From assembly GCA_038751255.1 (NCBI GenBank), contig JBCDGN010000006.1, positions 689 through 64,688 of the forward strand: a DNA stretch of 64,000 bases, written 5' to 3'. The notes beneath the pieces are model-generated. The model had not been told where the DNA came from and made no database searches. It saw only the letters and a program-made list of their open reading frames with translations. The position numbers and the translations under genes were made by a program. Shown here piece by piece: positions 2,850 to 36,175 of this stretch. Source of the DNA: Pseudomonadota bacterium (GTDB lineage Bacteria; Pseudomonadota; Alphaproteobacteria; Rhodobacterales; Rhodobacteraceae). The number at the start of each line of letters is the position of its first letter. Position 1 is the first letter of the stretch.

Positions 2850-2880
2850 TCAACTCCAACGACCCTCAGGGAGATCAGCA

Positions 2881-4155: not shown

Positions 4156-4229
4156 GCCAAGACTTCAGCCAGATACGCCTCGGCTTTCGGGCCGGGGCGT
4201 GCGTTTGAGGAGACCGAGCAGCGGCTGCT

Positions 4230-6638: not shown

Positions 6639-6925
6639 AGGTTTAGGTTTAAGACGCTTGCCAACGAGTAACGCCAGTCAGAAACTCACTTGCTACGCGG
6701 TTGCTTTGTCGAGTGTTGGAATTGCGATGGGCAGCTCGACACTTTTGCCGTCTATTTGGTGACGCCATAGCTGCTTCAAATAGCTTCCCCGCACGCTGTG
6801 TTTTGGCGTTGTTAACTGACATCTAACGAAGAACGCTTGGAAAAAAACTTGCTGGATTGGTGAGTTTGCCGCAACATTGTCCCAAAGGCGCGGGGGAAAC
6901 CCGCCAGCCTTCGGGGGGAGGCTAT

Positions 6926-11507: not shown

Positions 11508-11535
11508 CTCTCGGTTCGGCTCCTCAGGCGGAAAC

Positions 11536-15957: not shown

Positions 15958-17414
15958 AAGCGCGGTTCCAATACGTGAAAGATCCGGTCGATGTCGAAGC
16001 CATCGGTGCAATCGATAACTTCGAGACTTGGAAAGCTTTGGTTGATTGATGCACCGCCCTTCGGAGGCGCTTTCACTAAAACCGTGAATTCCGGAGGTGT
16101 TTCGCGCAGGGCAATCGCGCGTCTCAAGCGATTCAGGAAGCTTCGCACCCAAGACACGGGCGCATTGCCCTGCATCATCAAAACCGCATCACTTTCGGTG
16201 AGGTTGAACCAGATATCCTCGTCCCGCTCATGCGGATCGTCATCGAAACAGGGAATTGCCGCGAAACGTTTGCGCGCACCAAAAGCCTGCAAAAGCTCTG
16301 AGGCGATGTGTTCGTCGCTGGCATCGGCGCCTATGAAGTAGTGTGATGTGCTGAGCTTTTCAGGCGCAGGCTTCTTGATCTTTTCCAGGCGTTCGACAAT
16401 CTCAGATTTGAACGCTTCCAATCCTGAGGCGATCACATGTTCTGCGGATAAAAGACTTTGATGATGTTCTTGTGGGATCTGTTCAAGGTCGATTTCCTGA
16501 TGGCGCCAGCCGAGCCGCTCGACACCCGCCGCTTGGGCTGCGTCAGCCTGATACATGGGATAGCCGTCCGGCATATCCGGTGGTTGGCGTCCCGCTGTTC
16601 GACCGAGCAATTGCACGAACAAATCAGCGTCCTGCAAATCTTTTTCGAAGGCTGCGCGAAACTCCTCGCCGCCTTGTGGATAGTGGAACTCTGGGACGAC
16701 CTTGATACCAAGCTGCATAAGCGCCGCCCGCACCTGTTCGCGTTCAAAATCCACATCCTCGGTTGATTGCGCCAACAGCACGGTGCCGCGATCAGAAGAT
16801 TGCGTTTCATCAATCTCTGGATCTAAACGAGCACTTGGCGCGATCGGCCTTGTTCTGGTGCCGCCGGACGAGCGCGCATTCCGGATATCGACCAATGCAT
16901 CACGCAACTGATTGGCAAGCTGTGTGATATTTGTCATGTAGAGTTCCCAATCGGTCTTTATGTCGAGCATCATAGGTGTCTGCCCGGTCGGTCCGGAACG
17001 CCGCCAAAACTCAAACCGCAGATGTTCCGATAGCCCAAACCGCGCCTGGCCAGTTTCTTCTAGTGGCAATAACTCAACAAAGAATTGCTGGTTTGAGGAG
17101 GGGTTGTGCCGCCGAAAGCAATCCAGTTCCAGCTGCGTGTACTGGCTATTGACGAAGGCCGGCGAGGCAAGGCCGAGAAACAACGCTGATCCACCGACCT
17201 CTTCGGTCAAAGCCTGATCCAACACTTGATTGGCGCGCAGATGCGTTTGGTCCCAGAACACCTCAACCCCTTGTTGGCTGAGCCTTTGGTTCAGCATCTC
17301 CCTTAGTCGCTGAACGAAAGTTTCTACGACCCCATGATCGTCAGAGCCACGAATATTATCCGCGTGGGCATAACTGATAAACAGGTCGTTTTTGCATCCA
17401 GGAATGAAGGCCAT
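15954..17414 (-). CDS. TIR domain protein with unassigned ~340-aa C-terminal extension
   Basis: N-terminus KNDLFISYAHADN plus SQYTQLELDCF (conserved Glu position) fits the TIR fold. The later stretches DADLFVQLLGRTAG and SDAVLMMQGN resemble DUF4062/TIR-like strands, but I cannot assign them. Confidence 0.85.
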   Translation of the reverse strand: MAFIPGCKNDLFISYAHADNIRGSDDHGVVETFVQRLREMLNQRLSQQGVEVFWDQTHLRANQVLDQALTEEVGGSALFLGLASPAFVNSQYTQLELDCFRRHNPSSNQQFFVELLPLEETGQARFGLSEHLRFEFWRRSGPTGQTPMMLDIKTDWELYMTNITQLANQLRDALVDIRNARSSGGTRTRPIAPSARLDPEIDETQSSDRGTVLLAQSTEDVDFEREQVRAALMQLGIKVVPEFHYPQGGEEFRAAFEKDLQDADLFVQLLGRTAGRQPPDMPDGYPMYQADAAQAAGVERLGWRHQEIDLEQIPQEHHQSLLSAEHVIASGLEAFKSEIVERLEKIKKPAPEKLSTSHYFIGADASDEHIASELLQAFGARKRFAAIPCFDDDPHERDEDIWFNLTESDAVLMMQGNAPVSWVRSFLNRLRRAIALRETPPEFTVLVKAPPKGGASINQSFPSLEVIDCTDGFDIDRIFHVLEPRL

Positions 17415-17642: not shown

Positions 17643-19157
17643 TCAGTTGCCGAAGAGCTTATTTCCGAAGGCGTTGCCAATGCCCTCACCCACCCCTTTG
17701 ACAAAGGAGTTCACGGCTCCGTTGCTCTTCTTGGATCGGCTCGAAGAGGATGACCGACTGCCGCCGCTGCTGGTGGATTGCGTGACCATATATGCGGCGT
17801 AGGTTGCCTCAGTTTGGCTGGTCAGCAGTTCAAGCTGCAAAGAATTCAGGTACTGCGTTGCAGGCAGTCCATTTGAGGTTTGCCAAGCAGCGATGCCGCG
17901 GCGTGTATTGGGACCGAAGGCGCCATCAGGTGTGCCAACATTGTTGTTGGTTGCGTTGAGACGCGCCTGGATTTCCCGGCGCTTGTCTCTGTCCATGTTT
18001 AGCGCCTGCTCTGTGATCTGAGTTGCAGGTGCGACGATGACATGCTGTGTCACATTCAAGACCAGAGGCAACGAGGGATCATAGGTGCTGATCGCTCGTG
18101 TGGCGGCGGCTACATTTGGTGCTTCCGGCTGGGCAGGTGCTAGGCCCGCAGTTTGCTCTTCAGCACCCTGCAGACGCTCAATAGCAATCCGTGCGAAGCG
18201 GGCATAGCGACCGTTTGGGTAAAAGTCCAAATACGCTTGGTAATCCTCAGCAAAACCGGATTCCCGCGCGAGTTCAAACATGTACTTTTCTTCTTCGAGA
18301 TCGACAACGGATACAGCGGCAGCAGGCGCGTCGGTTGCGGTCTCTACGGGTGCGGCTGGTGCCGCCGCAACGCGATGCAAAACGACTTCATCGGTATACG
18401 ACTGGTTGAACCAAGGACGCTGTTGCTGATCCGTGGCACGATACACATCCCCGGTCACACGCGACATGATCGTGGTGATCGGTTCATTGGGGGTGCCGAT
18501 ATGCTTCAGCAGCGCTTCGGTGAAAGGCGAATGCTGTCCATCGCCGTCCAAGGCGACGTTGCCTGGCTCTGTTGCGAAGACAATGCCCGTCCCCGACCCA
18601 TTGTCCTGAACATTCATCTCACTCAGTCCGGCCCCACCGATGGAGCGTGTGGAGCCTTTCAAAGAACGCGCCAGCTTGTCCTGGAAAGGATTGTCGCGAC
18701 AGGCGTCCAAGATCAGCAGATTGGCGCCTTGGGTATATTCCATCTGCTTGGTGATCACGTCGATCGAGAAGGCCTCAAAGTCGATGGAAAGCTCATCATC
18801 CATTACGGCATCGACAGGGATAAGATAGTTGCGGCCGTCCACCTGAATGCCGTGACCGGCATAGAAAAATAGCGCCATATCGGCTGAGCGCACCTCGCGA
18901 GCGAACTCGCGGGCCATTTTCGCCATATCTGCAGCGCCGAGATCATAGCCTTCCAGCGTTTCGAAGCCGAGCGTGCGCAGCTTAGCTGCAATCGCTTGCG
19001 CGTCATTCTTAGGATTGGCCAGCGGACTTGCGTGTTCATACTCGCTATTGCCAATGATGAGGGCGACTTTGGCAGCAAATGCTTGAACGGGTGTGGTGAC
19101 CACGAGGATCGCTGCGAATGCGATGTTGCGAACCCTGCGGGAGGTGATCTGTTCCAT
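17643..19157 (-). CDS. Exported caspase-family (peptidase C14) protein with C-terminal PG_binding_1-like domain
   Basis: Signal peptide (VQAFA-AK). KVALIIGNSEY, His motif FFYAGHGIQ and Cys motif LLILDACRDNPF. C-terminal GTPDGAFGPNTRRGIAAWQTSNGLPATQYL, then a Ser/Gly-rich tail. Confidence 0.9.
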   Translation of the reverse strand: MEQITSRRVRNIAFAAILVVTTPVQAFAAKVALIIGNSEYEHASPLANPKNDAQAIAAKLRTLGFETLEGYDLGAADMAKMAREFAREVRSADMALFFYAGHGIQVDGRNYLIPVDAVMDDELSIDFEAFSIDVITKQMEYTQGANLLILDACRDNPFQDKLARSLKGSTRSIGGAGLSEMNVQDNGSGTGIVFATEPGNVALDGDGQHSPFTEALLKHIGTPNEPITTIMSRVTGDVYRATDQQQRPWFNQSYTDEVVLHRVAAAPAAPVETATDAPAAAVSVVDLEEEKYMFELARESGFAEDYQAYLDFYPNGRYARFARIAIERLQGAEEQTAGLAPAQPEAPNVAAATRAISTYDPSLPLVLNVTQHVIVAPATQITEQALNMDRDKRREIQARLNATNNNVGTPDGAFGPNTRRGIAAWQTSNGLPATQYLNSLQLELLTSQTEATYAAYMVTQSTSSGGSRSSSSSRSKKSNGAVNSFVKGVGEGIGNAFGNKLFGN

Positions 19158-19205
19158 GAAACTATCCCTTTTGCAGATTGATAACGTTTGGCGCCGACCA
19201 GCGCC

Positions 19206-19754
19206 TCAAAGGTTTCCGATGTTCACGATTTCAATGCGCTGGTTCATAGGATCGGCGGCATTGCCGGAGTTCAGTGCCGATGCGCCCATACCTTGAACGC
19301 CCAAGAACTTGTCCGTGCCCATTCCGTAGAAGCCTTGCAGATGTTCTAGGACAGTCTGCGCGCGCCGGGCAGAGACAGGCTGTGCCGAAGCCGGTGCGTT
19401 CGGCGTATAGGCATAAGCCAATATCTGGAACTTTGAGTTTTGTAAGCGGGGATCTTCCAAAGCCGCAGCAAGTGTGCGTAAAGTTTTCATCCCATCTACC
19501 GTTAAAAGATGAGACTCGCCCTCGAAACCAACTTGAAGCTTGGCCACCGGTTGGCCGGAGGCTTGCAGCGCGACTGCATTTGCATTCTGATTTGGACGTG
19601 TAACTCCGCGATCGGCCGCCATTTGCGGCATCAGGGCAGTCACAATTTGTTCATACGAGAAGGATGCTTGCGCGTTGGTTGCGGGTGCAAATGACACCCC
19701 TAAAAACCCAGCAATCAATCCAATTCTAACAGTTCGATTCAAGGATTCTAGCAT
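19206..19754 (-). CDS. Exported OmpA_C-like (peptidoglycan-associating) protein, degenerate motif
   Basis: ORF track gives 19206..19829. Start moved to ATG 19754 (MLESLNRTVRIGLIAGFLGVSFAPATNAQA is a signal peptide, with AAGG 5 nt upstream). C-terminal FQILAYAYT..VSARRAQTVLEHL..NQRIEIV matches the OmpA C-terminal pattern, with the GHTD box degenerate. Confidence 0.7.
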   Translation of the reverse strand: MLESLNRTVRIGLIAGFLGVSFAPATNAQASFSYEQIVTALMPQMAADRGVTRPNQNANAVALQASGQPVAKLQVGFEGESHLLTVDGMKTLRTLAAALEDPRLQNSKFQILAYAYTPNAPASAQPVSARRAQTVLEHLQGFYGMGTDKFLGVQGMGASALNSGNAADPMNQRIEIVNIGNL

Positions 19755-20302
19755 ATGCCTTACCCCAATTGACTGATCTGCGAAATCCAGCAGCGACCTA
19801 TAGAAAAGACCATTTGGACGCCACGTCAAGAAGTCTAACCAAAGCCCAAATCAGAAGCTAGAATTTTTGCCCTCAACCCAGAGTTTACCGCTTATTTATG
19901 AGTCCTAGCGCACATTAACATCTTGCTTGGCGACCTTAGATCCGCCATGCAACTGGGGCGGGCAGTCTCACAAAATATTGTTACAATTGTATATTATCGA
20001 AAGCACAGGCTTGGTGCCTATGAAGGCTTTGCCGCCGTTCCGGCCTCCAACAGAGGCGGTATTTTTGCTGATGAAATGCCGTTATCACGCTCCACTGCCA
20101 CGGTAGACATAGTTTAACTTGACTTAGGGTCCCCTCAGCGAGGAACGTTTGCGGGCGATTCCAAACGCCGCATCGTGGTCTAAACGAGTGTCGGCAGTCA
20201 TATTTTTGAACGAATGAGAAGTTGATGCTAAATTACGCTGGTTTTATAAAACTACGGATTGTCAATTCCCGGAATTTTTCGACTATTTGACCGGGTCCTC
20301 AC
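19755..20302. promoter_or_regulatory. AT-rich divergent control region between the two exported-protease operons
   Basis: 548 bp without a credible ORF, between a minus-strand start (19754) and a plus-strand start (20303). Visibly AT-rich and contains the perfect 10-bp palindrome TACAATTGTA at 19982..19991. Promoters inferred from gene geometry only. Confidence 0.4.
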
Positions 20303-21079
20303 ATGCATTTTTTCCGAATTGTGATAAGTCTCCTGTCGATCCATCTGATAGTTGCGCCGGCCATCGCGCAAAGCCAACGCGCGTTGAGCGTCGAGCAAAT
20401 TACAGTACAAGAAGCAAAGCCGAGCGAAGGCGCGTATTCGATCACAGCGACGCTCAACAATTTCGATGGGGTTTACCGTATTGGTGATCCAGTTGATGTT
20501 TCTGTAAGCTTAGACAAATCAGCCTATGTCCTGGTTCTGAACGTCGATGAAAGCGGGCGTATTGTTCAGCTCTTTCCTAACAAATTTGAGTCACGGAATT
20601 TTTTCCAGGCTGGGCAGACCTATAAGTTACCCGGTGAAGGCGCACGCATCGTCGCTGCGGGACCACCTGGGCTTGAGTTGATCAAGATCATTGTGTCCGA
20701 GAAGTCTCTTTCTTTGGATGCGATGATGGAAACAGCGCCGATTGGACCTTTTGAGATCACGCCCCCAGGTGCGGGTGAGGGTGTGGCGCGTGCACTGGGC
20801 GTGTCGCCCTTGCAAATGCCTGCAAGCCCGGATCCAGAACCCGAAGCTCCGAGTCCGGTGGAGGTTCTCCCTGAGTTCGGGGCTTGGGCAGAGTTGACCT
20901 TGGTTCTGAGCACGGTGTCTGCTGACGACAGTCCGAGCGGTGCGGCCCCAACACTCCCTGGAGAAGGTGAACAGGGAGAAGATAGCGGCATGGCGCCCGT
21001 TGCGCGCATGCTCTGCAGTGGGGTGCGAAACCTCACCAATCAGCCATTTGCTGTAAAGGAGCAGATCGAATGCGTTTAG
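20303..21079 (+). CDS. Exported DUF4384 domain protein
   Basis: Signal peptide (APAIA-QS). YRIGDPVDVSVSLDKSAYVLVLNVDESGRIVQLFPN matches the DUF4384 pattern. Pro/Glu-rich linker in the C-terminal half. Confidence 0.75.
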   Translation: MHFFRIVISLLSIHLIVAPAIAQSQRALSVEQITVQEAKPSEGAYSITATLNNFDGVYRIGDPVDVSVSLDKSAYVLVLNVDESGRIVQLFPNKFESRNFFQAGQTYKLPGEGARIVAAGPPGLELIKIIVSEKSLSLDAMMETAPIGPFEITPPGAGEGVARALGVSPLQMPASPDPEPEAPSPVEVLPEFGAWAELTLVLSTVSADDSPSGAAPTLPGEGEQGEDSGMAPVARMLCSGVRNLTNQPFAVKEQIECV

Positions 21080-22134
21080 CGGCCATCTCGCAGGGGCTTG
21101 CGCTGCTCGTACTCGGGCTTTCGGCGCAATCTCTGTGGGCCGACACGGCCGTCAAAATTGCTCTGCCTGATCCGCTGTCGCAACAAGCACTTCAGGCGTT
21201 AGGCAATGGTGAGGGGAATGTTCTGCTTTCGCCCCAAAGCCTTGTGGATGTGGTTGCGCTTTCTCGAGCAGGATTGGGAGAAACACCGCCTACCGCTCTT
21301 ATGCCGAGCACGGTTGTAAGCGCGAATGCGGCCTGGTTTGACACAACTGCCGTGCCGACTGCGGAGGCATCCAAGACCCTGACAACGGACTGGGACGCAC
21401 CGCCGGTTTCGCTGGACATGGCTAAAGATGGTAAGACGAAGATCAATGAATGGGTGCGCGAGGCCACCGAGGGCCGGATCCAAGACCTGATCACTGACCC
21501 CTTAGTCGGTGTCAGCGTTGTTTTGACCAACGCTCTGGTTTTTAAGGACGCTTGGCGTGTTCCTTTCGATCCAGACGAGACAATCCCGCGCGACTTTCAT
21601 CTCACGGGTGATGAAACTGTCGAGGTGCCCTTTATGCTGAGCCCTGTTGCTGCGCTCTGCCAGGATTCGGAACAGGGTGTCCTTGTCGCGCTGAGCTTTG
21701 CAGAAGCAGGTCATCTCGTGTTGCGTCCGCAGGCCGAAGAAGCTGCGATGACATGCACCGGTGAGCTTGAAGCCAGCGATGAGGGTGCCGATGACAACCG
21801 CCTAGTGCAGGTGGCCATGCCGCGCATTGATCTGACCGCTGACTTGGATTTGTCCGGGTTGGTTAAGACGCTCGGCTTATCGGCTGCGATGGCGGAGGGA
21901 TTTGCGTACTTAACGGTTGCACCGTCAGTGCCCGGTCCGGTTTTGCAGTCGGTTCTCTTTCGCGCAGATGAAGAAGGGGCAGAAGCAGCCGCCGCGACAG
22001 CAGCCATCGGTGTACGGTCGGTCCGGGTACCAGAATCACCGTTGTTGGTTTTCGACCGCCCTTTCGAATTCTTTGTGATGATGCCAGGTCATGACACGGC
22101 GATGATCGCTGGCATCCTGAGAGATCCGAGATAA
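21070..22134 (+). CDS. Exported serpin-family protease inhibitor
   Basis: Signal peptide (QSLWA-DT). Serpin landmarks LLSPQSLVDVVAL, KINEWVREATEGRIQDLI, LTNALVFKDAW. Reactive-centre-loop hinge EEGAEAAAATAAIGVRSVRVP, followed by FDRPFEFFVM. Overlaps the upstream gene by 10 nt. Confidence 0.85.
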   Translation: MRLAAISQGLALLVLGLSAQSLWADTAVKIALPDPLSQQALQALGNGEGNVLLSPQSLVDVVALSRAGLGETPPTALMPSTVVSANAAWFDTTAVPTAEASKTLTTDWDAPPVSLDMAKDGKTKINEWVREATEGRIQDLITDPLVGVSVVLTNALVFKDAWRVPFDPDETIPRDFHLTGDETVEVPFMLSPVAALCQDSEQGVLVALSFAEAGHLVLRPQAEEAAMTCTGELEASDEGADDNRLVQVAMPRIDLTADLDLSGLVKTLGLSAAMAEGFAYLTVAPSVPGPVLQSVLFRADEEGAEAAAATAAIGVRSVRVPESPLLVFDRPFEFFVMMPGHDTAMIAGILRDPR

Positions 22135-22139
22135 CAGAG

Positions 22140-22736
22140 ATGCTGTTGGCCCGTATTCGACCCCGTTTTAGCCTTCTCATGGGCAGCTTGGCCCTTGCGC
22201 TTACGATGATTTTGGGCGTGCAATCGCACGCGCAAGAGCGGGCGAATGAGGTCCCGGTAGCGCGGTCGGTGGGAGACGCCCTGGTTGCGCATCTCAAACT
22301 CTATAATGCCGCGGACCAAAGCTGGGCGCGGATCGCGTTCGACAATCCGAGCCTTGCGATTGGAGATTTCGTGTCGGTCTGCGCGGAGGCCAAGCGCAAC
22401 GGGTACCTGTCTGTATGGTCTAAAACGCTCGACGGTCAGCCACCAGTGAGGATCTTTCCGAATGATTTCACGCCGGAAGATCGCAAACGCAAAGGGGGCC
22501 ATATCGAAGCGGGGCAAGAGATATGCCTTGGTGATGCTGTGCAAGGCTATGGCTTTGAAGTGATGGAGCCGTTGGGTCCCGCAGAGGTTTATCTGCATTG
22601 GAGCCCCGATCTTTCCGGCCAATTCGGTCCAGAGGATATCCCGCTGATCCCCGATCACGGCCAAGCCAGTGGCGCGAGGGCATCAAGTGCGCCCTATTCC
22701 GCGCAAGTCATCCGCTACAGGACAATTGCTCAATGA
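22140..22736 (+). CDS. Exported DUF4384 domain protein
   Basis: Signal peptide (QSHA-QE). IGDFVSVCAEAKRNGYLSVWSKTLDGQPPVRIFPNDF matches the DUF4384 pattern. Confidence 0.7.
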   Translation: MLLARIRPRFSLLMGSLALALTMILGVQSHAQERANEVPVARSVGDALVAHLKLYNAADQSWARIAFDNPSLAIGDFVSVCAEAKRNGYLSVWSKTLDGQPPVRIFPNDFTPEDRKRKGGHIEAGQEICLGDAVQGYGFEVMEPLGPAEVYLHWSPDLSGQFGPEDIPLIPDHGQASGARASSAPYSAQVIRYRTIAQ

Positions 22737-23605
22737 ACGCTTTGAGAGAGATACCGCGACGGATTTTGGGACAAATCTTGATCATGGGTGTTTGCCTTGG
22801 TGCGGCAGAGGCAGAGTCATTTGCGTGTCGCGATGTCTCTGGGCGCACGGTCAGCCGGGTTATAGGTGGACATCAGATTTCTCATCAAGAGGCACCTTAT
22901 CAGGTTGCCTTGATAGTCCGGAGCGCGGACGGCGACGGCAGTTTTGGTTGCGGCGGGTCTTTGATCAGTCGCGGCTTTGTCCTGACAGCGGCGCATTGTG
23001 TGGTGGGCAAGGAAATCAACGGCCCCAACGGAAAGGCCCAACCGGGCCAAGTCACAGTGCTTTATGGCGGTGACAGTCAGCTCGAGATGATGCAGGCGAA
23101 CCAAACGGCAGAGGTGGACTCGATCATTGTCCATTCGCGGTACCGCGACCGGGTCCCGAGCCCTGCAGATATCGCGGTCCTACGGTTGAAAGACCCGCTG
23201 GATGTCCCTCAAACCGCTGTGATCACGCTTGCCTCGCCACAGATGGAAACTGCCTTGATGGCAGATTTTACCTGCGCACGAGTGACTGGTTACGGACGAA
23301 CCGAAAGCGGTCGCGGCAGTGATCAAATGCTCGGGGTCAACCTTCTGGTTCAACCCGCACAGGTTTGCCGCAATTTCAGCACTCAAGTCACGTCCGAGAT
23401 GCTTTGCGCCGGGTACAATGCTGGGGATCAGACCGCTTGCAATGGTGACAGTGGAGGGCCGCTGGTGATCCGCGAGGGCCCAACCGGCTGGGTGCAGGTG
23501 GGCATTGTGAGTTGGGGAAAAAAAGGCTGCCGTGGGGCGGGAAGCTTTGGTGTCTATACGCGGGTGTCTTCCTTTGTGCCTTGGATATTGCAGGTGACGC
23601 AATGA
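22733..23605 (+). CDS. Exported S1 (chymotrypsin-fold) serine protease with short propeptide
   Basis: ORF track gives 22598..23605. Start moved to ATG 22733 (MNALREIPRRILGQILIMGVCLGAAEA), which forms ATGA with the upstream stop. Catalytic triad LTAAHC / DIAVLRL / GDSGGPL. Mature-type N-terminus VIGGHQ preceded by Arg. Confidence 0.9.
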   Translation: MNALREIPRRILGQILIMGVCLGAAEAESFACRDVSGRTVSRVIGGHQISHQEAPYQVALIVRSADGDGSFGCGGSLISRGFVLTAAHCVVGKEINGPNGKAQPGQVTVLYGGDSQLEMMQANQTAEVDSIIVHSRYRDRVPSPADIAVLRLKDPLDVPQTAVITLASPQMETALMADFTCARVTGYGRTESGRGSDQMLGVNLLVQPAQVCRNFSTQVTSEMLCAGYNAGDQTACNGDSGGPLVIREGPTGWVQVGIVSWGKKGCRGAGSFGVYTRVSSFVPWILQVTQ

Positions 23606-24519
23606 GGATGTGTGCGGCCGGCGGGCTTGTCGCTTCGCTTTGGGTATCCTCAGCTTGGGCCGTCTGCGATCCGCTGCAAGAGGCTGACGAGATACTTTCG
23701 ACTCTCGATGAGAAGAGCAGCACAGCCCTGAGCACGCTGCGCGAATCAGCGCTGCAACGTGGATGTACTGGCAGCGAACAGCAACAGATTGGCCGCTGGT
23801 TGTCTCTTTCACTTCTTTACGATGCAGCGCGTAGTTTCAGCAGCCTTGAAGAGGCCGAACCGAGCTTGCGGCGCGCGGCTGCTTTCGGGGGCATTTGGCA
23901 GGTCCACAATGCACTAGGCGATGCAGCGCGCGCGCGCAGAGACTATGACGAGGCTGCGCTTCAGTATCAGCTCGCCATCCAGGATGCGCAGATATTGGCG
24001 GATCCCTCGTCAAGCTATCTTGATGTGCCACCAGGTGAGGATGCGATGACTGCTTTGGTTGGCAAGGCCAATGACATGCGCCTTCTGGCCTCTGGCTTTG
24101 TGACACTCCCTGGACGTCCGGCTTGTCAGATTCAGACGACGAGCCTTTGGACCGCGCAGATCGTTGCGCCGATCCGTTTCGTGACCAACGAGACCACAAT
24201 GACGGATGAGGGTAAGTCCGCGGCGGATGAGCTTTATTCCTGCCTTGCCGCGCTGGACCCGGCGAATATCGAAAGTATCACCATCATTGGTCACACCGAT
24301 GAACGGGGCTCTGATAGCTACAATCAAGCGCTTTCTTTGCGCCGTGCAGAAGCGGTCAAAACCTATTTGGTGGACCGAGGCCTGCGTCTTGACATGGGGA
24401 TTGAGGGACGCGGTGAGGAAGAGCTTTTTCAACCCGACACCAGTTTTGCCTATAGCGAGGAAGAACGTTGGCAAATGAGCCGTCGGGTTGAAGTTGATGT
24501 CGTCGAACGCGGGAGCTGA
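23602..24519 (+). CDS. Exported OmpA-family protein (helical N-terminal half + OmpA_C domain)
   Basis: ORF track gives 23512..24519. Start moved to ATG 23602 (ATGA overlap with the protease stop; MRMCAAGGLVASLWVSSAWA signal). C-terminus ITIIGHTDERGSDSYNQALSLRRAEAVKTYL..RRVEVDV is a canonical OmpA_C motif. Confidence 0.85.
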   Translation: MRMCAAGGLVASLWVSSAWAVCDPLQEADEILSTLDEKSSTALSTLRESALQRGCTGSEQQQIGRWLSLSLLYDAARSFSSLEEAEPSLRRAAAFGGIWQVHNALGDAARARRDYDEAALQYQLAIQDAQILADPSSSYLDVPPGEDAMTALVGKANDMRLLASGFVTLPGRPACQIQTTSLWTAQIVAPIRFVTNETTMTDEGKSAADELYSCLAALDPANIESITIIGHTDERGSDSYNQALSLRRAEAVKTYLVDRGLRLDMGIEGRGEEELFQPDTSFAYSEEERWQMSRRVEVDVVERGS

Positions 24520-24521
24520 AC

Positions 24522-26042
24522 ATGCATCAGCCGCTCTTAGCAGCACTCTGTGTCGCCTGGGCCGCTTCGTCCCCTGTGATCGCGGCGAATTACGCCTTGG
24601 TCATCGGTATCGATGACTATGAAAGCATCGCCGACCTACAGGGTGCCAAAAATGACGCAACACTGATTGCTGAGGCGCTACAGACCTTTGGCGTTTCCGA
24701 TCTGCGCGTTTTGCTAGACCAAGAGGCGACCTATGACTCAATCCGAAGCGCTTGGAATGATCTGTTGTCCAAAGCGCAATCTGGGGACACGCTTATCTTC
24801 ACCTATTCTGGCCATGGCGCGCGCATCGCCGATGAAAATGGTGACGAAGCCAGCAGATCGCAGCCGGATGATGTGACCGACGAGATGTTCGTTTTCTCAA
24901 GCTACAACGAACAAACCTCTGAAGGGAAAAAGGAAAAACTCATCGATGATGAGCTGCACCAATGGTTCCTGGCGGCAGGCGAAAAAGATGTGCAGGTGCT
25001 TTTTGTCGCCGATAGCTGTTTTTCGGGCACTATCACACGCGGTGGGCGTGCGCGGTTCTTTGAAAGCCTCCTTGGGCTAGGCCCCGATATTCGGCGCAAG
25101 CCTCTGGAAAATATGCGAGAGACAGAAGAAGAGACCATCGAGAACGTGGTTTTTATGGCGGGATCTCGAGAGGCCGAGCCGGTCTTAGAGGTGTTGATCG
25201 ACAACCGATATCACGGTGCATTGAGCTATTCTTTCGCCAGGGCGCTTTCGATGGCGGCCGATCTTGATCAGGATGGCGCGCTGAGCCGCGACGAGCTGTC
25301 CGCATTCATTCCACGAACGGCTCAGAGTTTTAATGGTGCTCGGCATCTGCCGGAACTCAGTGCAGTTGATGGACCTGATTTTGCTGTTTTGGTGCCGGAC
25401 GAAACCGGCTGGAGCGATCCGAACGCGACCTGGGATTACGAAGGCACGGCCCAGGCGGAGCTGCCGCAAGCTTCGACAGCCTCCGCTCTGCCGTCAGCGC
25501 CAGGGGCGTCTTGGGACCCTGAGACTGGGAACATCACTGACGCAATGGGGGAAACCATTGCTTATGGCGTTGACGAAAACCGTCTGACGGAAGTGAATGA
25601 CAAATTCGCCTTGCTGAATTTGCTGCGCGAGGGCGTGGTGCAGTCGGGGACGGACCTTTCCATCATCGTGGAAGGCGCGCCTTGGCATCGCGAATTGACC
25701 ATAGGGACCGGATTCCAAATCCAAATTGGCCCCCTCAAGCGTCCTTATATGACAGTGTTCAACCTAGCCAATAATGGCGAAGTGCAGCTGGTCTATCCTA
25801 TCGATAGAACGGAACGACGACCGCTGCCATTGGGCGAAACAATTACTTTCGATGCGGAAGCATCAGAGCCATTGGGCTCCGATGAGTTGATCGTCATCCT
25901 CACAGATGAAGAGCCCGCAGATTTACGCCAAGCTTTGAAATGGGCGCTGCCTGCCAGCGAGTTTAGCGCCATCGTCACCCGCCTACTGGCTCAAGGGGGT
26001 GCCAGCTTTGGTCATTTCAGCATTGTCACACAGGATCAGTAA
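24522..26042 (+). CDS. Exported caspase-family (peptidase C14) protein with C-terminal DUF4384 domain
   Basis: Signal peptide (PVIA-AN). YALVIGIDDY, His motif FTYSGHGARI, Cys motif LFVADSCFSG. C-terminal TGFQIQIGPLKRPYMTVFNLANNGEVQLVYP (DUF4384-like). Confidence 0.9.
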   Translation: MHQPLLAALCVAWAASSPVIAANYALVIGIDDYESIADLQGAKNDATLIAEALQTFGVSDLRVLLDQEATYDSIRSAWNDLLSKAQSGDTLIFTYSGHGARIADENGDEASRSQPDDVTDEMFVFSSYNEQTSEGKKEKLIDDELHQWFLAAGEKDVQVLFVADSCFSGTITRGGRARFFESLLGLGPDIRRKPLENMRETEEETIENVVFMAGSREAEPVLEVLIDNRYHGALSYSFARALSMAADLDQDGALSRDELSAFIPRTAQSFNGARHLPELSAVDGPDFAVLVPDETGWSDPNATWDYEGTAQAELPQASTASALPSAPGASWDPETGNITDAMGETIAYGVDENRLTEVNDKFALLNLLREGVVQSGTDLSIIVEGAPWHRELTIGTGFQIQIGPLKRPYMTVFNLANNGEVQLVYPIDRTERRPLPLGETITFDAEASEPLGSDELIVILTDEEPADLRQALKWALPASEFSAIVTRLLAQGGASFGHFSIVTQDQ

Positions 26043-26043
26043 G

Positions 26044-27522
26044 ATGAAACGGCTCGCACTGGTATTGACGGCGTTTTTGAGTGTCGCAAGTTTCGCTATC
26101 GCAGAGGATCGCGCGCTGCTGATCGGCGTCAGTGCTTACAACGGGGACGCAGCGCCCCTGGTAGGACCAGCAAACGATCTTCGCCTGATGAAACGGGTCT
26201 TGACCGAAAAGTTTGATTTCGAGACGTCCCAAATTCTGACTCTGGCCGATGATGACGTGACCCGCGGTGCGGTCTTGGGTGCCTTTCAAGACTGGCTGAT
26301 CGACGGCACGCAGCCGGGAGATCGCGTGTTCATCTATTATTCCGGACATGGCACGCAGATCGCCGACCTTGATGGTGATGAAGGTCAAGAGGGACGGGAT
26401 GAGGCATTGGTCATGGTCGATTTTCGCCACTCTGATGCCCGATCCGGGGTCGTCACCGATGATGAGCTTGATGCGCTGTTCAAACGCCTCGCCGGTCGGC
26501 GCGTGACGGCGATTGTTGATGCCTGCCACTCTGGGACAGTGTCGCGATCGCTCACGCCGGTGGTGGCCTCGACCGCTGCGAGGGCGCGGTTTGTGCCGGC
26601 ACGGCTCGAAAACTTACGTGGTGTCTCGGAAACGCGGTCGAGGTCGCGTGATACCGACGCGTTCAAACAAGATGCCAGCATCACAAATAGCGACCGGCCA
26701 TCTACTGGGTTGCTGGAGGTCTGGTCCTCTGCCGCGTCCTACCAGCTTGCCTGGGAGACCGATTATGAGGGCGAGTCCCATGGTGTGTTCACCAAAAACT
26801 TCGCCGAAGCGGTTCTGGATGACCGAGCCGACAGCAATGACAATGGTCACACCAGCCGGGAAGAGCTTCTGGCCTACATAAACGCGCGCTCTGAGGCGTT
26901 CTGCGCATCCAGCCCAGACTGCGCCGCGCGTGGAACCGGGTTTACCCCACAGCTTGAAGTGCCCCATGCAAGCCGAATTCTGACCGTTGTCGATTGGCCG
27001 GAAGAAGGCAACGAGCCCATTTCTGCCCCGACGGTCCAGGAGATGCTTGATCTCATTACTGGCGGGCGCAGAGACGTAAGGCTCGAACTCGTCCATCTCG
27101 ACAGAACAAAGGGCGGACCCATTCGTCCCGGCGATCATGTGGCTTTCGAAATCCAATCTCAAAGGGACGGCGATGTGCTGCTGTTCGATCTACGTGATGG
27201 CGGTGTTGTGCATCAACTTTTCCCGAGTGTCGCCTTTGCGAAAAACACCTCAGTTTTTTCTGGCGGGACGCTACGCATCCCTGACGCCTATACCCAGGTC
27301 GCTTTTCCCGCGCCCGCGGGACAAGGTACCTTGGTCGCGCTGATCGTCCATGACGCTGGACTGGTGAACAGCCTCAGTCAGCGCAACCGGCAGCTTACCC
27401 CAATCACCGATCCGCTCAGCTTTCTTGGCGAATTGATGAGTGAAATCAATGGTGTTTGGCATGGCGATGCAGAGAACCGAAAGGTCGAATTTGGCATGGC
27501 CGTGATGCCTTATGCGATCTAA
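26044..27522 (+). CDS. Exported caspase-family (peptidase C14) protein with C-terminal DUF4384 domain
   Basis: ORF track gives 25999..27522. Start moved to ATG 26044 (MKRLALVLTAFLSVASFAIA signal), 1 nt after the upstream stop. RALLIGVSAY, His motif IYYSGHGTQI, Cys motif AIVDACHSG. C-terminal GDHVAFEIQSQRDGDVLLFDLRDGGVVHQLFPS (DUF4384-like). Confidence 0.9.
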   Translation: MKRLALVLTAFLSVASFAIAEDRALLIGVSAYNGDAAPLVGPANDLRLMKRVLTEKFDFETSQILTLADDDVTRGAVLGAFQDWLIDGTQPGDRVFIYYSGHGTQIADLDGDEGQEGRDEALVMVDFRHSDARSGVVTDDELDALFKRLAGRRVTAIVDACHSGTVSRSLTPVVASTAARARFVPARLENLRGVSETRSRSRDTDAFKQDASITNSDRPSTGLLEVWSSAASYQLAWETDYEGESHGVFTKNFAEAVLDDRADSNDNGHTSREELLAYINARSEAFCASSPDCAARGTGFTPQLEVPHASRILTVVDWPEEGNEPISAPTVQEMLDLITGGRRDVRLELVHLDRTKGGPIRPGDHVAFEIQSQRDGDVLLFDLRDGGVVHQLFPSVAFAKNTSVFSGGTLRIPDAYTQVAFPAPAGQGTLVALIVHDAGLVNSLSQRNRQLTPITDPLSFLGELMSEINGVWHGDAENRKVEFGMAVMPYAI

Positions 27523-29663
27523 ACCGCGACCGGGTTGTCCAACCTGCGCGACGCATCCAGTCGATCCATGTCCGCGTCCGAGCATCCCAGGGGTCGTGCA
27601 TCAACGCGCAAAACCTCCACCGATTTGGGAAGTTTGGCAGCGCGCAACGCCTCTTCGAAAAGAGATGTCTGGAACAGATCGCGCCGTGTCTCAAAAACCG
27701 TAAAACTTGGCATCCGTCCGCAGCGCGCATACCACGCCTTGGCCAGATCGATCATATCCGCGAACGGTGTATCGGGTTCAATGGTCTTCACGATCCGCAA
27801 GCTGTAGCAGGCGACCTCTAAGGGGAGATCCGCAAGCGCGGCGGATAGCGCCGTTTCGATAGAGTTCTCACCCTGTGTTAGATCAATGTTGAATTCCTGC
27901 CGCCAGACGCTTTTTCGCTGCGCCGCGTCGTAGCGTTCGGCACACCGTTCGAGGATCTGCACCACGATGTCTTCGTCTTTCTTTTGGTCGGCGGCGGAAA
28001 GATCTTCATAGTCGCGCATCAATGGATGCAATTTCTTTTCGTCGTCCCGCATGCCGGACTGAGCGGGCTCATAGCCGTCGGCGCGTTTTTCAGTGAGCCA
28101 CCGCTCGTGTTCTGTCTGCGAGAGCCGAAGGATCAGGGCCTCATCCCGAAGAAGCTGATCGGCCAACGCTCTTGGGAGTCGCATGCCAGCCAATCCGGTC
28201 CCATGATCCGGCCTCAATCCGGCGCTGCGCAAGAGCTCGACCGCAGAGAGCGCTGCCCGATAGCTGGACCGACGACTGGAGTAAGTCAGTTTCTTCCAGG
28301 CTTGTTCGACTTGTTTGTCTTTGTCCTGGGTGAGCAGCCAAGTATTGTGTAGGGTTTCTGCGAGTTCTTCATGGAAGTTTTCAATCTCACTGTCTTCGGT
28401 ATCGCTTCTGATCCCACCAAAGAAAACAGGGCGGCTCGTCAGATCTACTAATGCGGTGGGCGCAATGCGGTCTCGGAAGTCTTGGCGCACATAAATGGGC
28501 GCTTTCAAACGCAGCTTGTTTAACTGAGCCTGTCTGAGACGCGTGGCAATGGCCGCATTTCTCGCATCATTTCCAGTTGCGACGATCAGCGCGGTGAGCG
28601 GGGCGAGCTTCTCCAACTCAATCAGCGGTTGTAAAATAGCGTCTTCTCCGCAGCGAAGCCCATCGAAATCCGCGATATCGACATTGGACAGACCATACAG
28701 ACCTGGCCTTTCACTTTCCATCCGAGCAATCGCCCCCGACGGGTTGCTGTCCAGTATCGACAGGCGCAATGGTTTAAGATCGGGGGCATGACAGCGCAAA
28801 ACCAGCTCTTCCGCGATCGCAAGTCCAACGCTTCCAAGACCGATTAAGGCGATATGGACTTGGTCTTGCTGGCGCATGGTCGCAAGTGTTGTCGGCGCCA
28901 TATGTGTCACCAACGAGCGCGCGATGATCTGGCCCGCTGAAAACACCTCAAACTTCCGTAGATCCGCATGGAAAAGTTCCAAATCGCGGGCGATTGAGCC
29001 ATCCTCCAACCGAATGCGCCAGTGCAGTTTTTCGTTGTGCGGTGAGGCATGCCGCGCTGAAAGAGCACGGGCGAGCTGAAGGTTACGCACACTTTGCCGG
29101 TCGCCCAACGTGATATGAGCCGGCGCTCCGATCGCAGAGGCAATCTCGGCAATATCTTCTCCTGTAACTGGCAGCAGAGAGGTGCGGCTCAGTCTCGGGC
29201 TCAACACATCAAGGGTGTTTTTTTCGACGATCACCGTAAGAGGGCGATTTGCCAGATCGGCAGCGGTTTCTTCCATGTCCAACACAAAACGATCCCCACC
29301 AATGAGGACGTGGTGATCGGTTCGGTGTTTGGCCCGGAACTTCTTCCACGAGTCTCCTAAGAAAACAGCGACGACACCAAACACCGCCGAGATTGTGGCA
29401 AGCAAACCAGTTAAACTCGCAATGCGAAGCTCTAGAACGTTTGAAAATTTTTCGTCCGCATAAATACCGTCGCCGCCAAAGGCCAAGAGCGAAAGATAGA
29501 CCGCCGCAGGTGCGTCTTTTTCCGCCCCAGTCCAACCGATAAACCCAAGGATCAAAGTGACCGTGCCCATCACGCAAAAGAAAACCCAAGCGGCATGGCG
29601 TTTTACAAAGCTTAAAAGGTCTCTCATTCCACACACATGAAATAGGTCATCAGAGGAATTCAC
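27519..29663 (-). CDS. Membrane protein with Rossmann-type (TrkA-N-like) region and a RyR-type domain
   Basis: N-terminal hydrophobic helices (WVFFCVMGTVTLILGFIGW, LTGLLATISAVFGVVAVFLG). Dinucleotide-binding motif VHIALIGLGSVGLAIAEEL. LSQTEHERWLTEKRADGYEP..DEKKLHPLMRDYEDLSAADQKKDEDIV matches the bacterial RyR-domain pattern as I remember it. ~170-aa unassigned C-terminus. The ORF starts at GTG 29663; ATG 29627 is an alternative. Confidence 0.65.
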   Translation of the reverse strand: MNSSDDLFHVCGMRDLLSFVKRHAAWVFFCVMGTVTLILGFIGWTGAEKDAPAAVYLSLLAFGGDGIYADEKFSNVLELRIASLTGLLATISAVFGVVAVFLGDSWKKFRAKHRTDHHVLIGGDRFVLDMEETAADLANRPLTVIVEKNTLDVLSPRLSRTSLLPVTGEDIAEIASAIGAPAHITLGDRQSVRNLQLARALSARHASPHNEKLHWRIRLEDGSIARDLELFHADLRKFEVFSAGQIIARSLVTHMAPTTLATMRQQDQVHIALIGLGSVGLAIAEELVLRCHAPDLKPLRLSILDSNPSGAIARMESERPGLYGLSNVDIADFDGLRCGEDAILQPLIELEKLAPLTALIVATGNDARNAAIATRLRQAQLNKLRLKAPIYVRQDFRDRIAPTALVDLTSRPVFFGGIRSDTEDSEIENFHEELAETLHNTWLLTQDKDKQVEQAWKKLTYSSRRSSYRAALSAVELLRSAGLRPDHGTGLAGMRLPRALADQLLRDEALILRLSQTEHERWLTEKRADGYEPAQSGMRDDEKKLHPLMRDYEDLSAADQKKDEDIVVQILERCAERYDAAQRKSVWRQEFNIDLTQGENSIETALSAALADLPLEVACYSLRIVKTIEPDTPFADMIDLAKAWYARCGRMPSFTVFETRRDLFQTSLFEEALRAAKLPKSVEVLRVDARPLGCSDADMDRLDASRRLDNPVAV

Positions 29664-29812
29664 TGGCTTGGATCACGCAAGTGCTGTGCTAGTGATTGCC
29701 CGAGAATGGGGTATTAATCTAGCCGCTATTTGGAACTGCTGGGTTTGGTACATGCTGGGGCAACGGTGGGATTTCGGGAGTGGCTCAGGGACGCTTGGGT
29801 GGTCCGCGTGAC

Positions 29813-35196: not shown

Positions 35197-35206
35197 AGCA
35201 ATTACC

Positions 35207-36151: not shown

Positions 36152-36175
36152 TGGAAGTCCCCCATGTGTTCCATA

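Follow-up and report, generated by a model that had tools for sequence, protein, structure and literature searches.

A mobile cluster of caspase homologs, an S1 protease and a serpin in Rhodobacterales: a candidate wall-tethered periplasmic protease cascade

Why would a bacterium encode a serpin in one operon with caspase homologs and a chymotrypsin-fold protease? The question is raised by a stretch of 64,000 nucleotides (nt) from a member of the Rhodobacteraceae (GenBank assembly GCA_038751255.1, contig JBCDGN010000006.1, positions 689 to 64,688), referred to here at its full length as the window. It is part of a 66.7-kb contig that belongs to a metagenome-assembled genome. Two divergent operons in this window encode nine proteins (g1 to g9), among them three peptidases of family C14, an S1 protease, and a serpin, and a first-pass annotation had read them as a regulated extracytoplasmic proteolytic network. 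We show here that the genes are coinherited and move from genome to genome as one unit, and that, as judged from their active-site residues, all proteases of the cluster have been kept catalytically intact across lineages. On the basis of sequence comparisons, we propose that the cluster may encode a protease cascade of the periplasm that is tethered to peptidoglycan and braked by a serpin, a mechanism to which we assign a probability of roughly one-half; any particular biological role is rated much lower. The cluster comprises the following features (export is predicted throughout; E values are those of Pfam matches).

17643 to 19157, minus strand: g1, exported Peptidase_C14 protein (1.3e-41) with a PG_binding_1 domain (3.4e-10).
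19206 to 19754, minus strand: g2, small exported OmpA_C-like protein (OmpA, 4.6e-07), start codon ATG at 19754.
19755 to 20302, no strand: divergent intergenic region between the two operons.
20303 to 21079, plus strand: g3, exported DUF4384 protein (8e-23).
21070 to 22134, plus strand: g4, exported serpin, short form (Serpin, 1.7e-34).
22140 to 22736, plus strand: g5, small exported DUF4384 protein (4e-07).
22733 to 23605, plus strand: g6, exported S1 protease, putative zymogen (Trypsin, 3.9e-50).
23602 to 24519, plus strand: g7, exported OmpA_C protein (OmpA, 1.8e-15).
24522 to 26042, plus strand: g8, exported metacaspase-like C14 protein (1e-15), with DUF4384 and EF-hand matches below threshold.
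26044 to 27522, plus strand: g9, exported metacaspase-like C14 protein (2.7e-23) with a DUF4384 domain (4.3e-09).

The nine open reading frames (ORFs) were all found where they had been annotated, each with an ATG start, and the junctions of the plus-strand genes were likewise confirmed (i.e., a 10-nt overlap at 21070 to 21079, a 5-nt gap at 22135 to 22139, ATGA overlaps at 22733 and 23602, a 2-nt gap at 24520 to 24521, and a 1-nt gap at 26043). Purine-rich, Shine-Dalgarno-like runs precede g4 and g6 to g9. The stoichiometric coexpression once proposed for the plus-strand genes had been read from their tight spacing, and we do not retain it as a finding. Promoter-like sites and terminators were no more frequent than expected by chance in sequence scans of the intergenic region (19755 to 20302) and the window; this region exhibited no meaningful similarity to the equivalent region of a Meridianimarinicoccus relative (L003, introduced below), with no conserved element detected in the comparison. 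Scans of the window for Rfam families and tRNA genes returned no hits.

The domain content was largely as first read. The His/Cys dyads of the three C14 enzymes (YAGHG/DACR, YSGHG/DSCF, and YSGHG/DACH) were recovered and are kept in every ortholog examined. Of an estimated two to three OmpA_C domains, two were found (g2 and g7) and no third. Three of the four DUF4384 domains were identified by Pfam (g3, g5, and g9), while the copy in g8 scored 18.2 bits against a cutoff of 27; it is nevertheless clearly homologous, since it aligns with the domains of g9, g3, and g5 and since the g8 orthologs P0128 and P0129 carry PF14326.

Do these genes belong together? Co-conservation had been set beforehand as the observation on which the network could be refuted, and genomic context was examined for approximately 17 loci. 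The seven plus-strand genes occur in the same order (i.e., DUF4384, serpin, DUF4384, S1 protease, OmpA-like, C14, and C14-DUF4384) in five further lineages. A word-indexed search with the serpin retrieved a single close relative, which lies in an identical seven-gene operon of another metagenome-assembled genome (MAG; locus L001). The corresponding search with g8 yielded at least 13 sequence clusters (42 to 100% identity) among 5.8 billion proteins, and every such cluster on a long enough contig exhibited the same seven-gene operon, namely, in the cultured Roseobacter sp. MH60115 (L002/L007), in a Meridianimarinicoccus MAG (L003, the same as L008), in the paired loci L004/L005, and in L006. 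Word-indexed searches miss relatives, so these distribution figures are lower bounds. The operon proteins are 35% (serpin) to 69% (g5) identical to those of the window, and the tight junctions are unchanged. The named relatives of the cluster are Rhodobacterales, several of them marine. Genomic surroundings differ between the loci, which indicates that the cluster moves as a unit.

These comparisons bear on two alternative explanations. That the cluster is an artifact, made of unrelated neighbors or of genes that are not real, is already refuted for practical purposes: every ORF carries a significant Pfam domain, orthologs stand in the same order in at least six lineages, and the catalytic residues are conserved. 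Nothing speaks for it beyond the caution that is generally due to mechanically made ORF lists. It could also be that the parts are independent, the proteases acting separately, for example on nutrients, surface proteins, or host or algal targets once released, and the serpin guarding the periplasm against foreign proteases. Ecotin shields the Escherichia coli periplasm from foreign proteases in this manner, and the Roseobacter group lives on algae and particles. We regard independent action as quite improbable, given a fixed gene order with overlapping stop and start codons across lineages that are 35 to 69% identical; further points on both sides are noted where they arise.

The network of nine genes that was first proposed stands in that the genes are coinherited, while the conserved unit is one of seven plus two genes and its membership varies. 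The g2/g1 pair is present in four of the six full-operon lineages (the window, L003, L004, and L006) and in a further locus, L093; the DNA examined of L001 and L002/L007 contains neither gene. In L003, the pair diverges from the operon as it does in the window; in L004, L006, and L093, it is found downstream in the orientation of the operon. The last of these is a reduced variant that carries the serpin, g7, g8, g9, g2, and g1; neither an S1 gene nor a DUF4384 gene standing by itself occurs there in 16.6 kb.

A second type of cluster was found in a gammaproteobacterial MAG (L011) and on two unclassified metagenome contigs (L094 and L095), with g8 homologs at 31 to 35% identity. It comprises one to three DUF4384 proteins, a g7-like OmpA protein, a g8-like C14 protein, and an S1-C14-DUF4384 fusion, and a serpin gene adjoins each fusion. 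The fusion ORFs are free of stop codons and encode 822 to 901 amino acids (aa) (L011, 11406 to 14111; L094, 11689 to 14367; L095, 12894 to 15362). Their products contain an S1 domain with Asp189 (KDSCQGDSGGP) behind an activation site TR↓IVGG (the arrow marks the predicted cut, here and below), a C14 domain with an active dyad, and DUF4384. These fusions independently confirm the association of the S1 protease with C14-DUF4384 and speak against independent action. FGE-sulfatase proteins accompany the fusions in L011 and L095, and some of those in L011 are fused to C14.

More distant relatives of g8 are solitary or belong to OmpA/C14/DUF4384 cores that lack a serpin. They were considered as an extension of the system and rejected, as they stand alone or occur without serpin and S1 genes. 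One such core lies on the mobilizable plasmid p2 of the cultured strain Azospirillum sp. TSA2s (L099; NZ_CP039644.1, 176.5 to 191.6 kb), where an OmpA/DUF4384/C14 set diverges from an OmpA/C14/C14 set without serpin or S1 gene and adjoins a 1,215-aa "tubulin-like domain" gene and type IV secretion genes. By tblastn, g8-like genes were found on 96 Rhizobium and 46 Pseudosulfitobacter plasmid records; PLSDB contained no plasmid with the serpin type described here. On a Paracoccaceae chromosome (L012), two giant proteins of 1,193 and 1,389 aa (934 to 4515, minus strand, and 11394 to 15563, plus strand) combine C14 with numerous ankyrin repeats and PG_binding_1. Their genes flank those of g7-like OmpA, double-DUF4384, and g8-like C14 proteins, and an IS110 transposase gene is inserted at this locus.

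Where would the proteins act? Signal peptides had been assigned to all nine, and both reading and hydropathy agreed with this: each N terminus combines an n-region that is basic or short with a hydrophobic core (10 to 15 residues) and an AxA-type site (predicted sites, AFA↓AK, AQA↓SF, AIA↓QS, LWA↓DT, SHA↓QE, AEA↓ES, AWA↓VC, VIA↓AN, and AIA↓ED). Longer alternative ORFs of g2, g6, g7, and g9 would bury the hydrophobic core and are less likely, and the orthologs of the nine proteins have the same type of N terminus. The mature proteins contain even numbers of noncatalytic Cys residues, the conserved ones paired, and in each C14 enzyme the sole unpaired Cys of the mature protein is the catalytic one; this pattern fits an oxidizing compartment. 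If one proteobacterial protein in four is exported, a rough figure, a run of nine would arise by chance with a probability of approximately 4e-6. We infer that all nine products are exported.

We likewise infer that g7, g2, and g1 tether the module to the murein by way of their OmpA_C and PG_binding_1 domains (Pfam scores, 57.5 bits for g7, 30.5 bits for g2, and 40.4 bits for PG_binding_1 of g1). The OmpA_C motif GHTDxRG...LSxRRA is conserved in alignments and predicts peptidoglycan binding; its Asp/Arg pair is what we take to be the diaminopimelate-binding pair. The g2 gene is always directly upstream of g1 (ortholog identities, 41 to 47%). The g7 protein consists of a conserved helical N-terminal domain with four Cys residues and an OmpA_C domain, matches OmpA/Pal structures in the Protein Data Bank (PDB), and is encoded directly upstream of the g8-type C14 gene in every cluster variant, so that the g7-g8 pair looks like the oldest core. 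A lipoprotein nature of g7 was considered in view of a Cys following the AxA site and was rejected, as the lipobox is not canonical. The three wall anchors argue against release of the proteins, and hence against independent action on outside targets.

Wall anchoring would also suit a housekeeping function, in which the proteases turn over peptidoglycan hydrolases, outer membrane tethers, or misfolded envelope proteins without any role in conflict, g7 serves as an adaptor, and the serpin limits collateral damage. In the NlpI-Prc system of E. coli and the LbcA-CtpA system of Pseudomonas, an envelope-anchored partner with helical repeats and a periplasmic protease act together at the cell wall. 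The peptidoglycan-binding domains of g1, g2, and g7 are in keeping with such a function, as are the helical N-terminal domain of g7 (with a hint of TPR_7 in the L011 homolog), its constant place before the g8-type C14 gene, and the ordinary metabolic genes that surround L001, L004, and L006. An earlier survey also recorded OmpA genes in 14 metacaspase operons, along with C14-PG-binding fusions and signal-like N-terminal helices (PMC3501461). However, the cluster is patchy and rare (at least 13 g8-type clusters among 5.8 billion proteins; 45 g5 relatives among 1.84 billion representatives) and occupies a different genomic position in each lineage, and neither rarity nor mobility is expected of a core envelope function; the two model systems are widely conserved, employ proteases of family S41 rather than C14 or S1, and include neither a zymogen nor an inhibitor. 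Multiple, redundant proteases, a zymogen, and a suicide inhibitor suggest a switch rather than steady turnover. We therefore doubt the housekeeping explanation.

What, then, would switch the module on? The S1 protease g6 has an intact triad (His88, Asp146, and Ser240) with invariant TAAHC, DIAV, and GDSGGP motifs (Pfam, 171 bits), and among solved enzymes it matches plasma kallikrein, factor Xa, and thrombin best (approximately 1e-33). Its N terminus contains the following feature.

22853 to 22870, plus strand: predicted zymogen activation site SR↓VIGG (Arg42-Val43) of g6, behind the 15-residue propeptide ESFACRDVSGRTVSR.

The propeptide follows the signal-peptide site and contains a conserved Cys; a propeptide before (I/V)(V/I)GG is how zymogens of the chymotrypsin fold are typically built. 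The sequence GR(T/A)VSR↓(V/I)(I/V)GG, in which cleavage is predicted, is invariant in six orthologs and aligns with TSTR↓IVGG of prekallikrein. Residue 189 of g6 is Thr (Thr, Asn, or Ser in all six operon orthologs), with Gly at positions 216 and 226. The Asp189 of a trypsin is thus missing from this type of S1 protease, and the label "trypsin" used in the first pass is a misnomer. Lacking Asp189, g6 is not expected to cut after Arg and should need another, Arg-directed activator, a dependence that is at odds with independent action. Eight Cys residues follow the signal peptide, and two of them have no classical partner: that of the propeptide and Cys181, which occupies the position of Cys136 with no equivalent of Cys201. 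The propeptide may therefore stay disulfide linked after cleavage. A metagenome scan with the S1 alignment returned 80 unrelated S1 loci (at most 34% identity), with no serpin, C14, DUF4384, or OmpA partners; the scan was keyed on generic trypsin motifs and serves only as a crude negative control. That such partners were missing from these loci likewise counts against independence of the parts.

Candidates for an Arg-directed activator are encoded in the same cluster. The C14 domains of g1, g8, and g9 scored 143, 58, and 83 bits, respectively (Pfam cutoff, 21.4). The g1 protein continues past its dyad His102/Cys153 (YAGHG/DACR) with a Pro/Ala linker, the PG_binding_1 domain, and a tail rich in Ser and Gly; its nearest solved relatives are MALT1 paracaspases (approximately 1e-11), and the dyad and pocket Asp are conserved in four orthologs. 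The g8 protein (His98/Cys166) has the acidic insert of metacaspases and an EF-hand-type loop and ends in a DUF4384-like beta-sandwich; its nearest solved relatives are the metacaspases Yca1, AtMC4, and MCA2 (of yeast, plant, and trypanosome). The g9 protein (His102/Cys161 plus DUF4384) is likewise nearest to metacaspases among solved structures (Yca1, 3.5e-21), and its homolog is the one that is fused to the S1 protease in the second cluster type. The acidic insert after the catalytic His of g8 and g9 aligns with that of Yca1, as does the segment HG..D.(N/D)GDE..D.

All three enzymes and their orthologs carry an Asp at the second position ahead of the catalytic Cys (D-S/A/T-C), as well as the Asp of an "ND" motif (N/Q/K-D), two positions that we take to be the S1-pocket acids in the structures of TbMCA2 and MALT1. 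The positions align with Yca1, MCA2, and MALT1, in keeping with an acidic pocket rather than the Arg/Gln pocket of caspases. Since both pocket Asp residues are kept and the solved enzymes closest to them are Arg/Lys-specific metacaspases and MALT1, the three enzymes are expected to cut after Arg or Lys, with acidic pockets of the metacaspase or paracaspase type. The loop in g8 is the following feature.

25260 to 25295, plus strand: EF-hand-type 12-residue loop DLDQDGALSRDE of g8 (residues 247 to 258), a subthreshold EF-hand_5 match.

Its residues D247, D251, and G252 are invariant in an alignment of 12 orthologs.

The presumed brake is g4. It matches the Serpin profile at 120.1 bits (PF00079; cutoff, 27) and conserpin at 2.7e-21 by phmmer, and its AlphaFold2 model (predicted local distance difference test [pLDDT] score, 81) is closest to latent or cleaved serpins in Foldseek searches (antithrombin and latent conserpin; E value, 1.6e-23; TM score, 0.69). 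Residues P15 to P5 are inserted as a strand in this model, which shows a sequence compatible with loop insertion. The reactive-center loop is located as follows.

21970 to 22041, plus strand: serpin reactive-center loop EEGAEAAAATAAIGVRSVRVPESP of g4 (residues E301 to P324).

The hinge of this loop (E301 to A309, EEGAEAAAA) matches the inhibitory type, for which the consensus from P17 to P9 is ExGTEAAAA (PMC8233489); it differs only at P14 (Ala for Thr) and is conserved in all 10 cluster serpins. An Arg is likewise present in the loop of all 10, as an Arg316-Ser317 pair in the six full-operon orthologs and as Arg-Ala in L093. The divergence of the serpin tracks that of g8, with L006 and L093 the most distant for both, and this codivergence argues further against independent parts. 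An exact-sequence lookup of the window serpin found none on record.

Which protease would the serpin inhibit? In the loop of the window type (...AAIGVR-S), Arg316 is the 16th residue counted from P17, i.e., strict P2, and residue 317 (Ser or Ala) is strict P1. In the loop that accompanies the fusions (...AAIMTTR-[A/T]), the Arg is at the canonical, strict P1, and the S1 domain there has Asp189. On one reading, the Arg functions as P1 in either loop and the serpin targets the Arg-directed C14 enzymes, as suggested by L093, where a serpin occurs without an S1 gene, and by known metacaspase-serpin pairs. On the other, the serpin tracks the S1 enzyme, Asp189 going with Arg at P1 and Thr, Asn, or Ser at 189 with Ser or Ala at P1. 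The two cannot be separated on present sequences. A dedicated pairing of the serpin with the S1 protease is not established: the loop Arg suits the Arg/Lys-type C14 pockets no less well, and the serpin is kept in L093 in the absence of an S1 gene. A g6 pocket that does not match the serpin Arg is also what independent parts would predict, and for most bacterial serpins studied so far the proteases assayed were foreign or model enzymes only, with natural roles called "enigmatic" (PMC8233489).

The remaining proteins belong to the DUF4384 family. The g3 protein has an acidic, Pro-rich tail and, in some orthologs, a second DUF4384 domain; orthologs were found in six lineages, while a homolog search with a g3 subsequence returned no match. 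The g5 family is small (45 representatives at E values of ≤1e-10 among 1.84 billion) and has two conserved Cys residues and a motif PV(A/S)R(S/A)xG approximately 10 residues past the signal-peptide site. This motif resembles the g6 activation site and the serpin loop (i.e., small residue-Arg-small residue), and one Arg-specific protease might recognize all three. The C-terminal domain of g8 was modeled with AlphaFold2 as a beta-sandwich with C-terminal helices (pLDDT, 93.9; alignment of 35 sequences). A structure search with this model found no close solved structure, the best match being the Wzt carbohydrate-binding domain (E value, 7e-3; TM score, 0.43); this match is too weak for a claim of glycan binding, and we make none.

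Taken together, the proposed mechanism would run as follows. The module would be held at the murein via g7, g2, and g1. The g6 protein would be made as a zymogen whose cleavage at Arg42-Val43 forms the active N terminus, a cut that it probably cannot make itself, as it lacks Asp189. Given the Arg at the activation site, the lack of Asp189 in g6, and the Arg/Lys-type pockets of the C14 enzymes, one of the latter would be the most likely activator, which would make a two-tier cascade. The serpin would be a suicide-substrate brake on one or more of the operon proteases, most likely on the Arg-directed C14 enzymes (i.e., across protease classes) and possibly on the S1 enzyme. The beta-sandwich of DUF4384, which stands alone in g3 and g5 and is joined to C14 in g8 and g9, would be a targeting, binding, or regulatory module. 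The output, guessed from neighboring genes, could be rapid degradation of envelope or invader proteins at a breach of the envelope, in defense or cell suicide. The regulated extracytoplasmic cascade of the first-pass annotation has thus become more plausible through the Arg site of the S1 zymogen, the inhibitory hinge, and the fusions, while the pairing of its partners is open to more than one reading.

Several observations weigh against this mechanism. The genes g1/g2, g3, g5, and even g6 are each missing from some variants, so a nine-part network is not obligatory. The serpin is short (354 aa with its signal peptide), with the region from helix C to helix D cut to approximately 16 residues between helix B (55 to 65) and strand 2A (82 to 91), and its Pfam match begins at profile position 82; CrmA is a minimal serpin that functions without helix D, and the reduction is hence not disqualifying. 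The g4 model is in the relaxed state and cannot speak to metastability. The target of the serpin is ambiguous, and covariation of its P1 with the S1 pocket could mean a serpin-S1 pair. The serpins of the two cluster types are not each other's closest relatives among bacterial serpins and may perhaps have been recruited twice, which, if so, would argue that such clusters need one. Calcium, in a marine periplasm, is more likely to be a cofactor than a switch. The nine proteins match no system model of PADLOC-DB 2.0, in which hits were limited to generic caspase (at most 74 bits) and weak LmuA-protease models, with none for the serpin. The analysis points to no trigger and no end substrate, and a role in defense rests only on TIR-nSTAND1 and patatin neighbors, which are present at some loci and absent from others.

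These neighbors lie within a stretch of slightly lower G+C content (approximately 6.8 to 38 kb) that contains the cluster and is flanked by transporter, racemase, and glycosidase genes. Two gene pairs are possible accessories.

15954 to 17414 and 11536 to 16152, minus strand: TIR_2 protein and nSTAND1 NTPase, respectively, codirectional with g2-g1; accessory membership uncertain.
29780 to 30910 and 30920 to 32983, plus strand: patatin-like phospholipase and DUF4231/SLATT-like protein, respectively, a possible accessory pair.

The nSTAND1 NTPase (Pfam, 5e-93) has one strongly hydrophobic transmembrane (TM) helix in a hydropathy scan (aa 568 to 586), followed by approximately 950 further unannotated residues, and is hence predicted to be a STAND protein that spans the membrane and has a large part outside the cytoplasm. 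Its TTG-initiated ORF overlaps the TIR gene by approximately 200 nt, and the true start is probably downstream. The TIR and nSTAND1 genes have the same arrangement beside g1/g2 in L003 (43 to 63% identity) and are absent at L001, L002, L004, and L006; L093 has a SLATT-like neighbor and, in addition, an unannotated 1,454-aa neighbor that matches the nSTAND1 protein over a short stretch. The patatin matches phospholipase effector models of PADLOC (6.7e-38), and the 687-aa SLATT-like protein has four predicted TM helices and subthreshold DUF4231/SLATT matches. This pair also follows g9 in L003, and a more distant patatin alone precedes g3 in L001 and L004. In three lineages, a four-gene cassette with no homolog in the window lies directly downstream of g9 (L001, 16694 to 20528; L002, 7525 to 11385, and L007, 12991 to 16836; L004, 13077 to 16884). 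It encodes proteins of approximately 417 aa, 144 aa, 460 aa (one central TM helix), and 255 aa (signal peptide). Neither the cassette nor the unannotated neighbors in the window received a Pfam, NCBIfam, or PADLOC assignment. No accessory module was found at L006 in 18 kb.

Other genes of this stretch were noted in passing. On the minus strand at 27519 to 29663, a 714-aa membrane protein with an RyR domain (7e-08) and two to three N-terminal TM helices is convergent with g9, with stop codons overlapping by 4 nt; it is absent from the syntenic L003 and is probably an insertion. The left edge (6857 to 11507, plus strand) encodes a 642-aa protein with approximately three TM helices and no Pfam match, a 217-aa protein with no match, and a 693-aa wall hydrolase that combines PG_binding_1, Amidase_2, and a GH19 lysozyme/chitinase-like segment. 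The right edge (33002 to 38176, minus strand) is another group that includes a protease; it encodes a 238-aa protein with four TM helices, an S8 subtilase bearing a long insert, a PAP2 phosphatase, and a 666-aa protein that weakly matches Trans_reg_C.

Could the cluster be the sensor arm of a membrane-spanning immune or cell-death system? In this case, the periplasmic proteases would sense a breach or an invader, and a proteolytic product or a cleaved TM partner (nSTAND1 or the 460-aa cassette protein) would signal to TIR, patatin, or SLATT-like pore effectors. Such an arrangement would account for the codirectional TIR and nSTAND1 genes in the window and L003, the TM helix of nSTAND1 between its NTPase and the remaining residues, and the neighbors of the reduced cluster L093. 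It would also account for the patatin genes that adjoin the operon in four of the six lineages (with a SLATT-like gene in two) and for the single-pass membrane protein and exported protein of the cassette. Yet no accessory module is universal, as the locus L006 illustrates, and defense genes cluster in islands without joint function; the cassette has no recognizable domains, and the topologies come from a hydropathy scan only. Published caspase/trypsin/STAND conflict systems, moreover, differ in makeup and mention neither serpins nor DUF4384. We consider a sensor arm of this kind unlikely.

The proposed cascade can be extended in the same direction, at long odds. It would then be the first bacterial serpin-regulated multitier zymogen cascade, one that passes its signal inward to suicide effectors of the TIR, patatin, or SLATT type. 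Wall-anchored Arg-specific C14 enzymes would fire the S1 zymogen at a breach of the envelope, a cross-class serpin would set the threshold, and the signal would cross the inner membrane through the single-pass STAND NTPase or the four-gene cassette.

How does the cluster relate to known systems? The first-pass annotation recognized no characterized bacterial operon of caspase, trypsin, and serpin, and in the literature searched we found no description or test of one, no report of a bacterial serpin-C14 pair, and no joint occurrence of "serpin" and "DUF4384"; neither NCBIfam nor PADLOC has a model for the cluster as a system. Related prokaryotic systems include the NTP-dependent conflict systems that Kaur et al. 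described from multicellular bacteria (2020 and 2021; PMC7159879 and PMC8195603), which likewise combine caspase-superfamily and trypsin-like peptidases, are patchy and island-like, and have been proposed to act as proteolytic cascades. Their nSTAND1 and TIR components also adjoin the cluster in the window and in L003. They are built, however, around a cytoplasmic NTPase core (vWA-MoxR, STAND, or GTPase) with effector-associated or Death-like adaptors, whereas the nine cluster proteins are predicted to be exported and have no such domains; four of the seven serpin-bearing loci of the window type (L001, L002/L007, L004, and L006) have no NTPase gene in the DNA examined. Membership in Systems 3 and 4 was therefore rejected, as the composition differs by description and the nine proteins contain no NTPase or adaptor domain. 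The two-gene EACC1-caspase system was rejected as well (caspase_w_EACC1 of NCBIfam, 35.3 bits against a cutoff of 140; no small single-TM gene upstream).

Surveys of metacaspases and orthocaspases (PMC3501461 and PMC6426788) share with our loci the C14 genes with OmpA neighbors and the PG-binding and FGE-sulfatase fusions. They list domains and neighbors only, with no serpin, zymogen analysis, or conserved multigene unit, and the former includes no serpin and no S1 protease. The latter describes a trypsin-p20-DUF4384 architecture in Alphaproteobacteria with an inactive Gln-Cys pseudo-dyad, in contrast to the fusions of L011, L094, and L095, in which the His is kept.

In eukaryotes, the animal cascades gated by serpins (i.e., coagulation and the contact system, and the Toll and prophenoloxidase pathways of arthropods) use the same secreted chymotrypsin-fold zymogens with an Arg cut before (I/V)(V/I)GG, a serpin with an Arg loop as the limiter, and surface-anchored components, and the solved enzymes nearest to g6 come from this group. 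They differ from the cluster in several respects: the cluster has no clip, kringle, Gla, or EGF modules, its presumed upstream proteases are C14 cysteine peptidases, and it has one S1 tier, which would lie in a Gram-negative periplasm and be anchored to peptidoglycan. Serpins have also been paired with caspase-family enzymes elsewhere. AtSerpin1 acts with AtMC9 and AtMC1 and CrSERPIN acts with CrMCA-I, both with Arg/Lys-specific metacaspases, and poxvirus CrmA inhibits caspases. CrmA resembles g4 also in being minimal; the candidate P1 of g4 is one residue nearer the hinge than usual. These serpins are cytosolic or apoplastic, eukaryotic or viral, and not operon encoded, while inhibition by g4 is predicted from its sequence. 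Each cluster protein belongs to a known family and the assembly to no described system; it would be a periplasmic, serpin-bearing member of the multiprotease systems centered on caspase homologs, and not categorically new.

Prokaryotes have been said to lack proteolytic signaling networks of the kind that eukaryotic serpins regulate, and the natural role of their serpins has been called enigmatic (PMC8233489); here, a serpin stands in an operon with four candidate protease targets in at least seven lineages of one cluster type, and serpins adjoin the proteases of a second type as well. Bacterial caspase homologs are abundant and their function is mostly open, and for them the cluster offers a candidate substrate (i.e., the S1 zymogen site), a candidate inhibitor, and a compartment. 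Its presence in the cultured Roseobacter sp. MH60115 makes genetics and biochemistry feasible. If the proposed cascade is real, it would provide a natural function for a prokaryotic serpin and a prokaryotic counterpart to the logic of the Toll, prophenoloxidase, and coagulation pathways. Inhibitor-gated zymogen cascades would then not be an invention of animals and plants, and the cross-class control of the caspase family by serpins would be either ancient or convergent.

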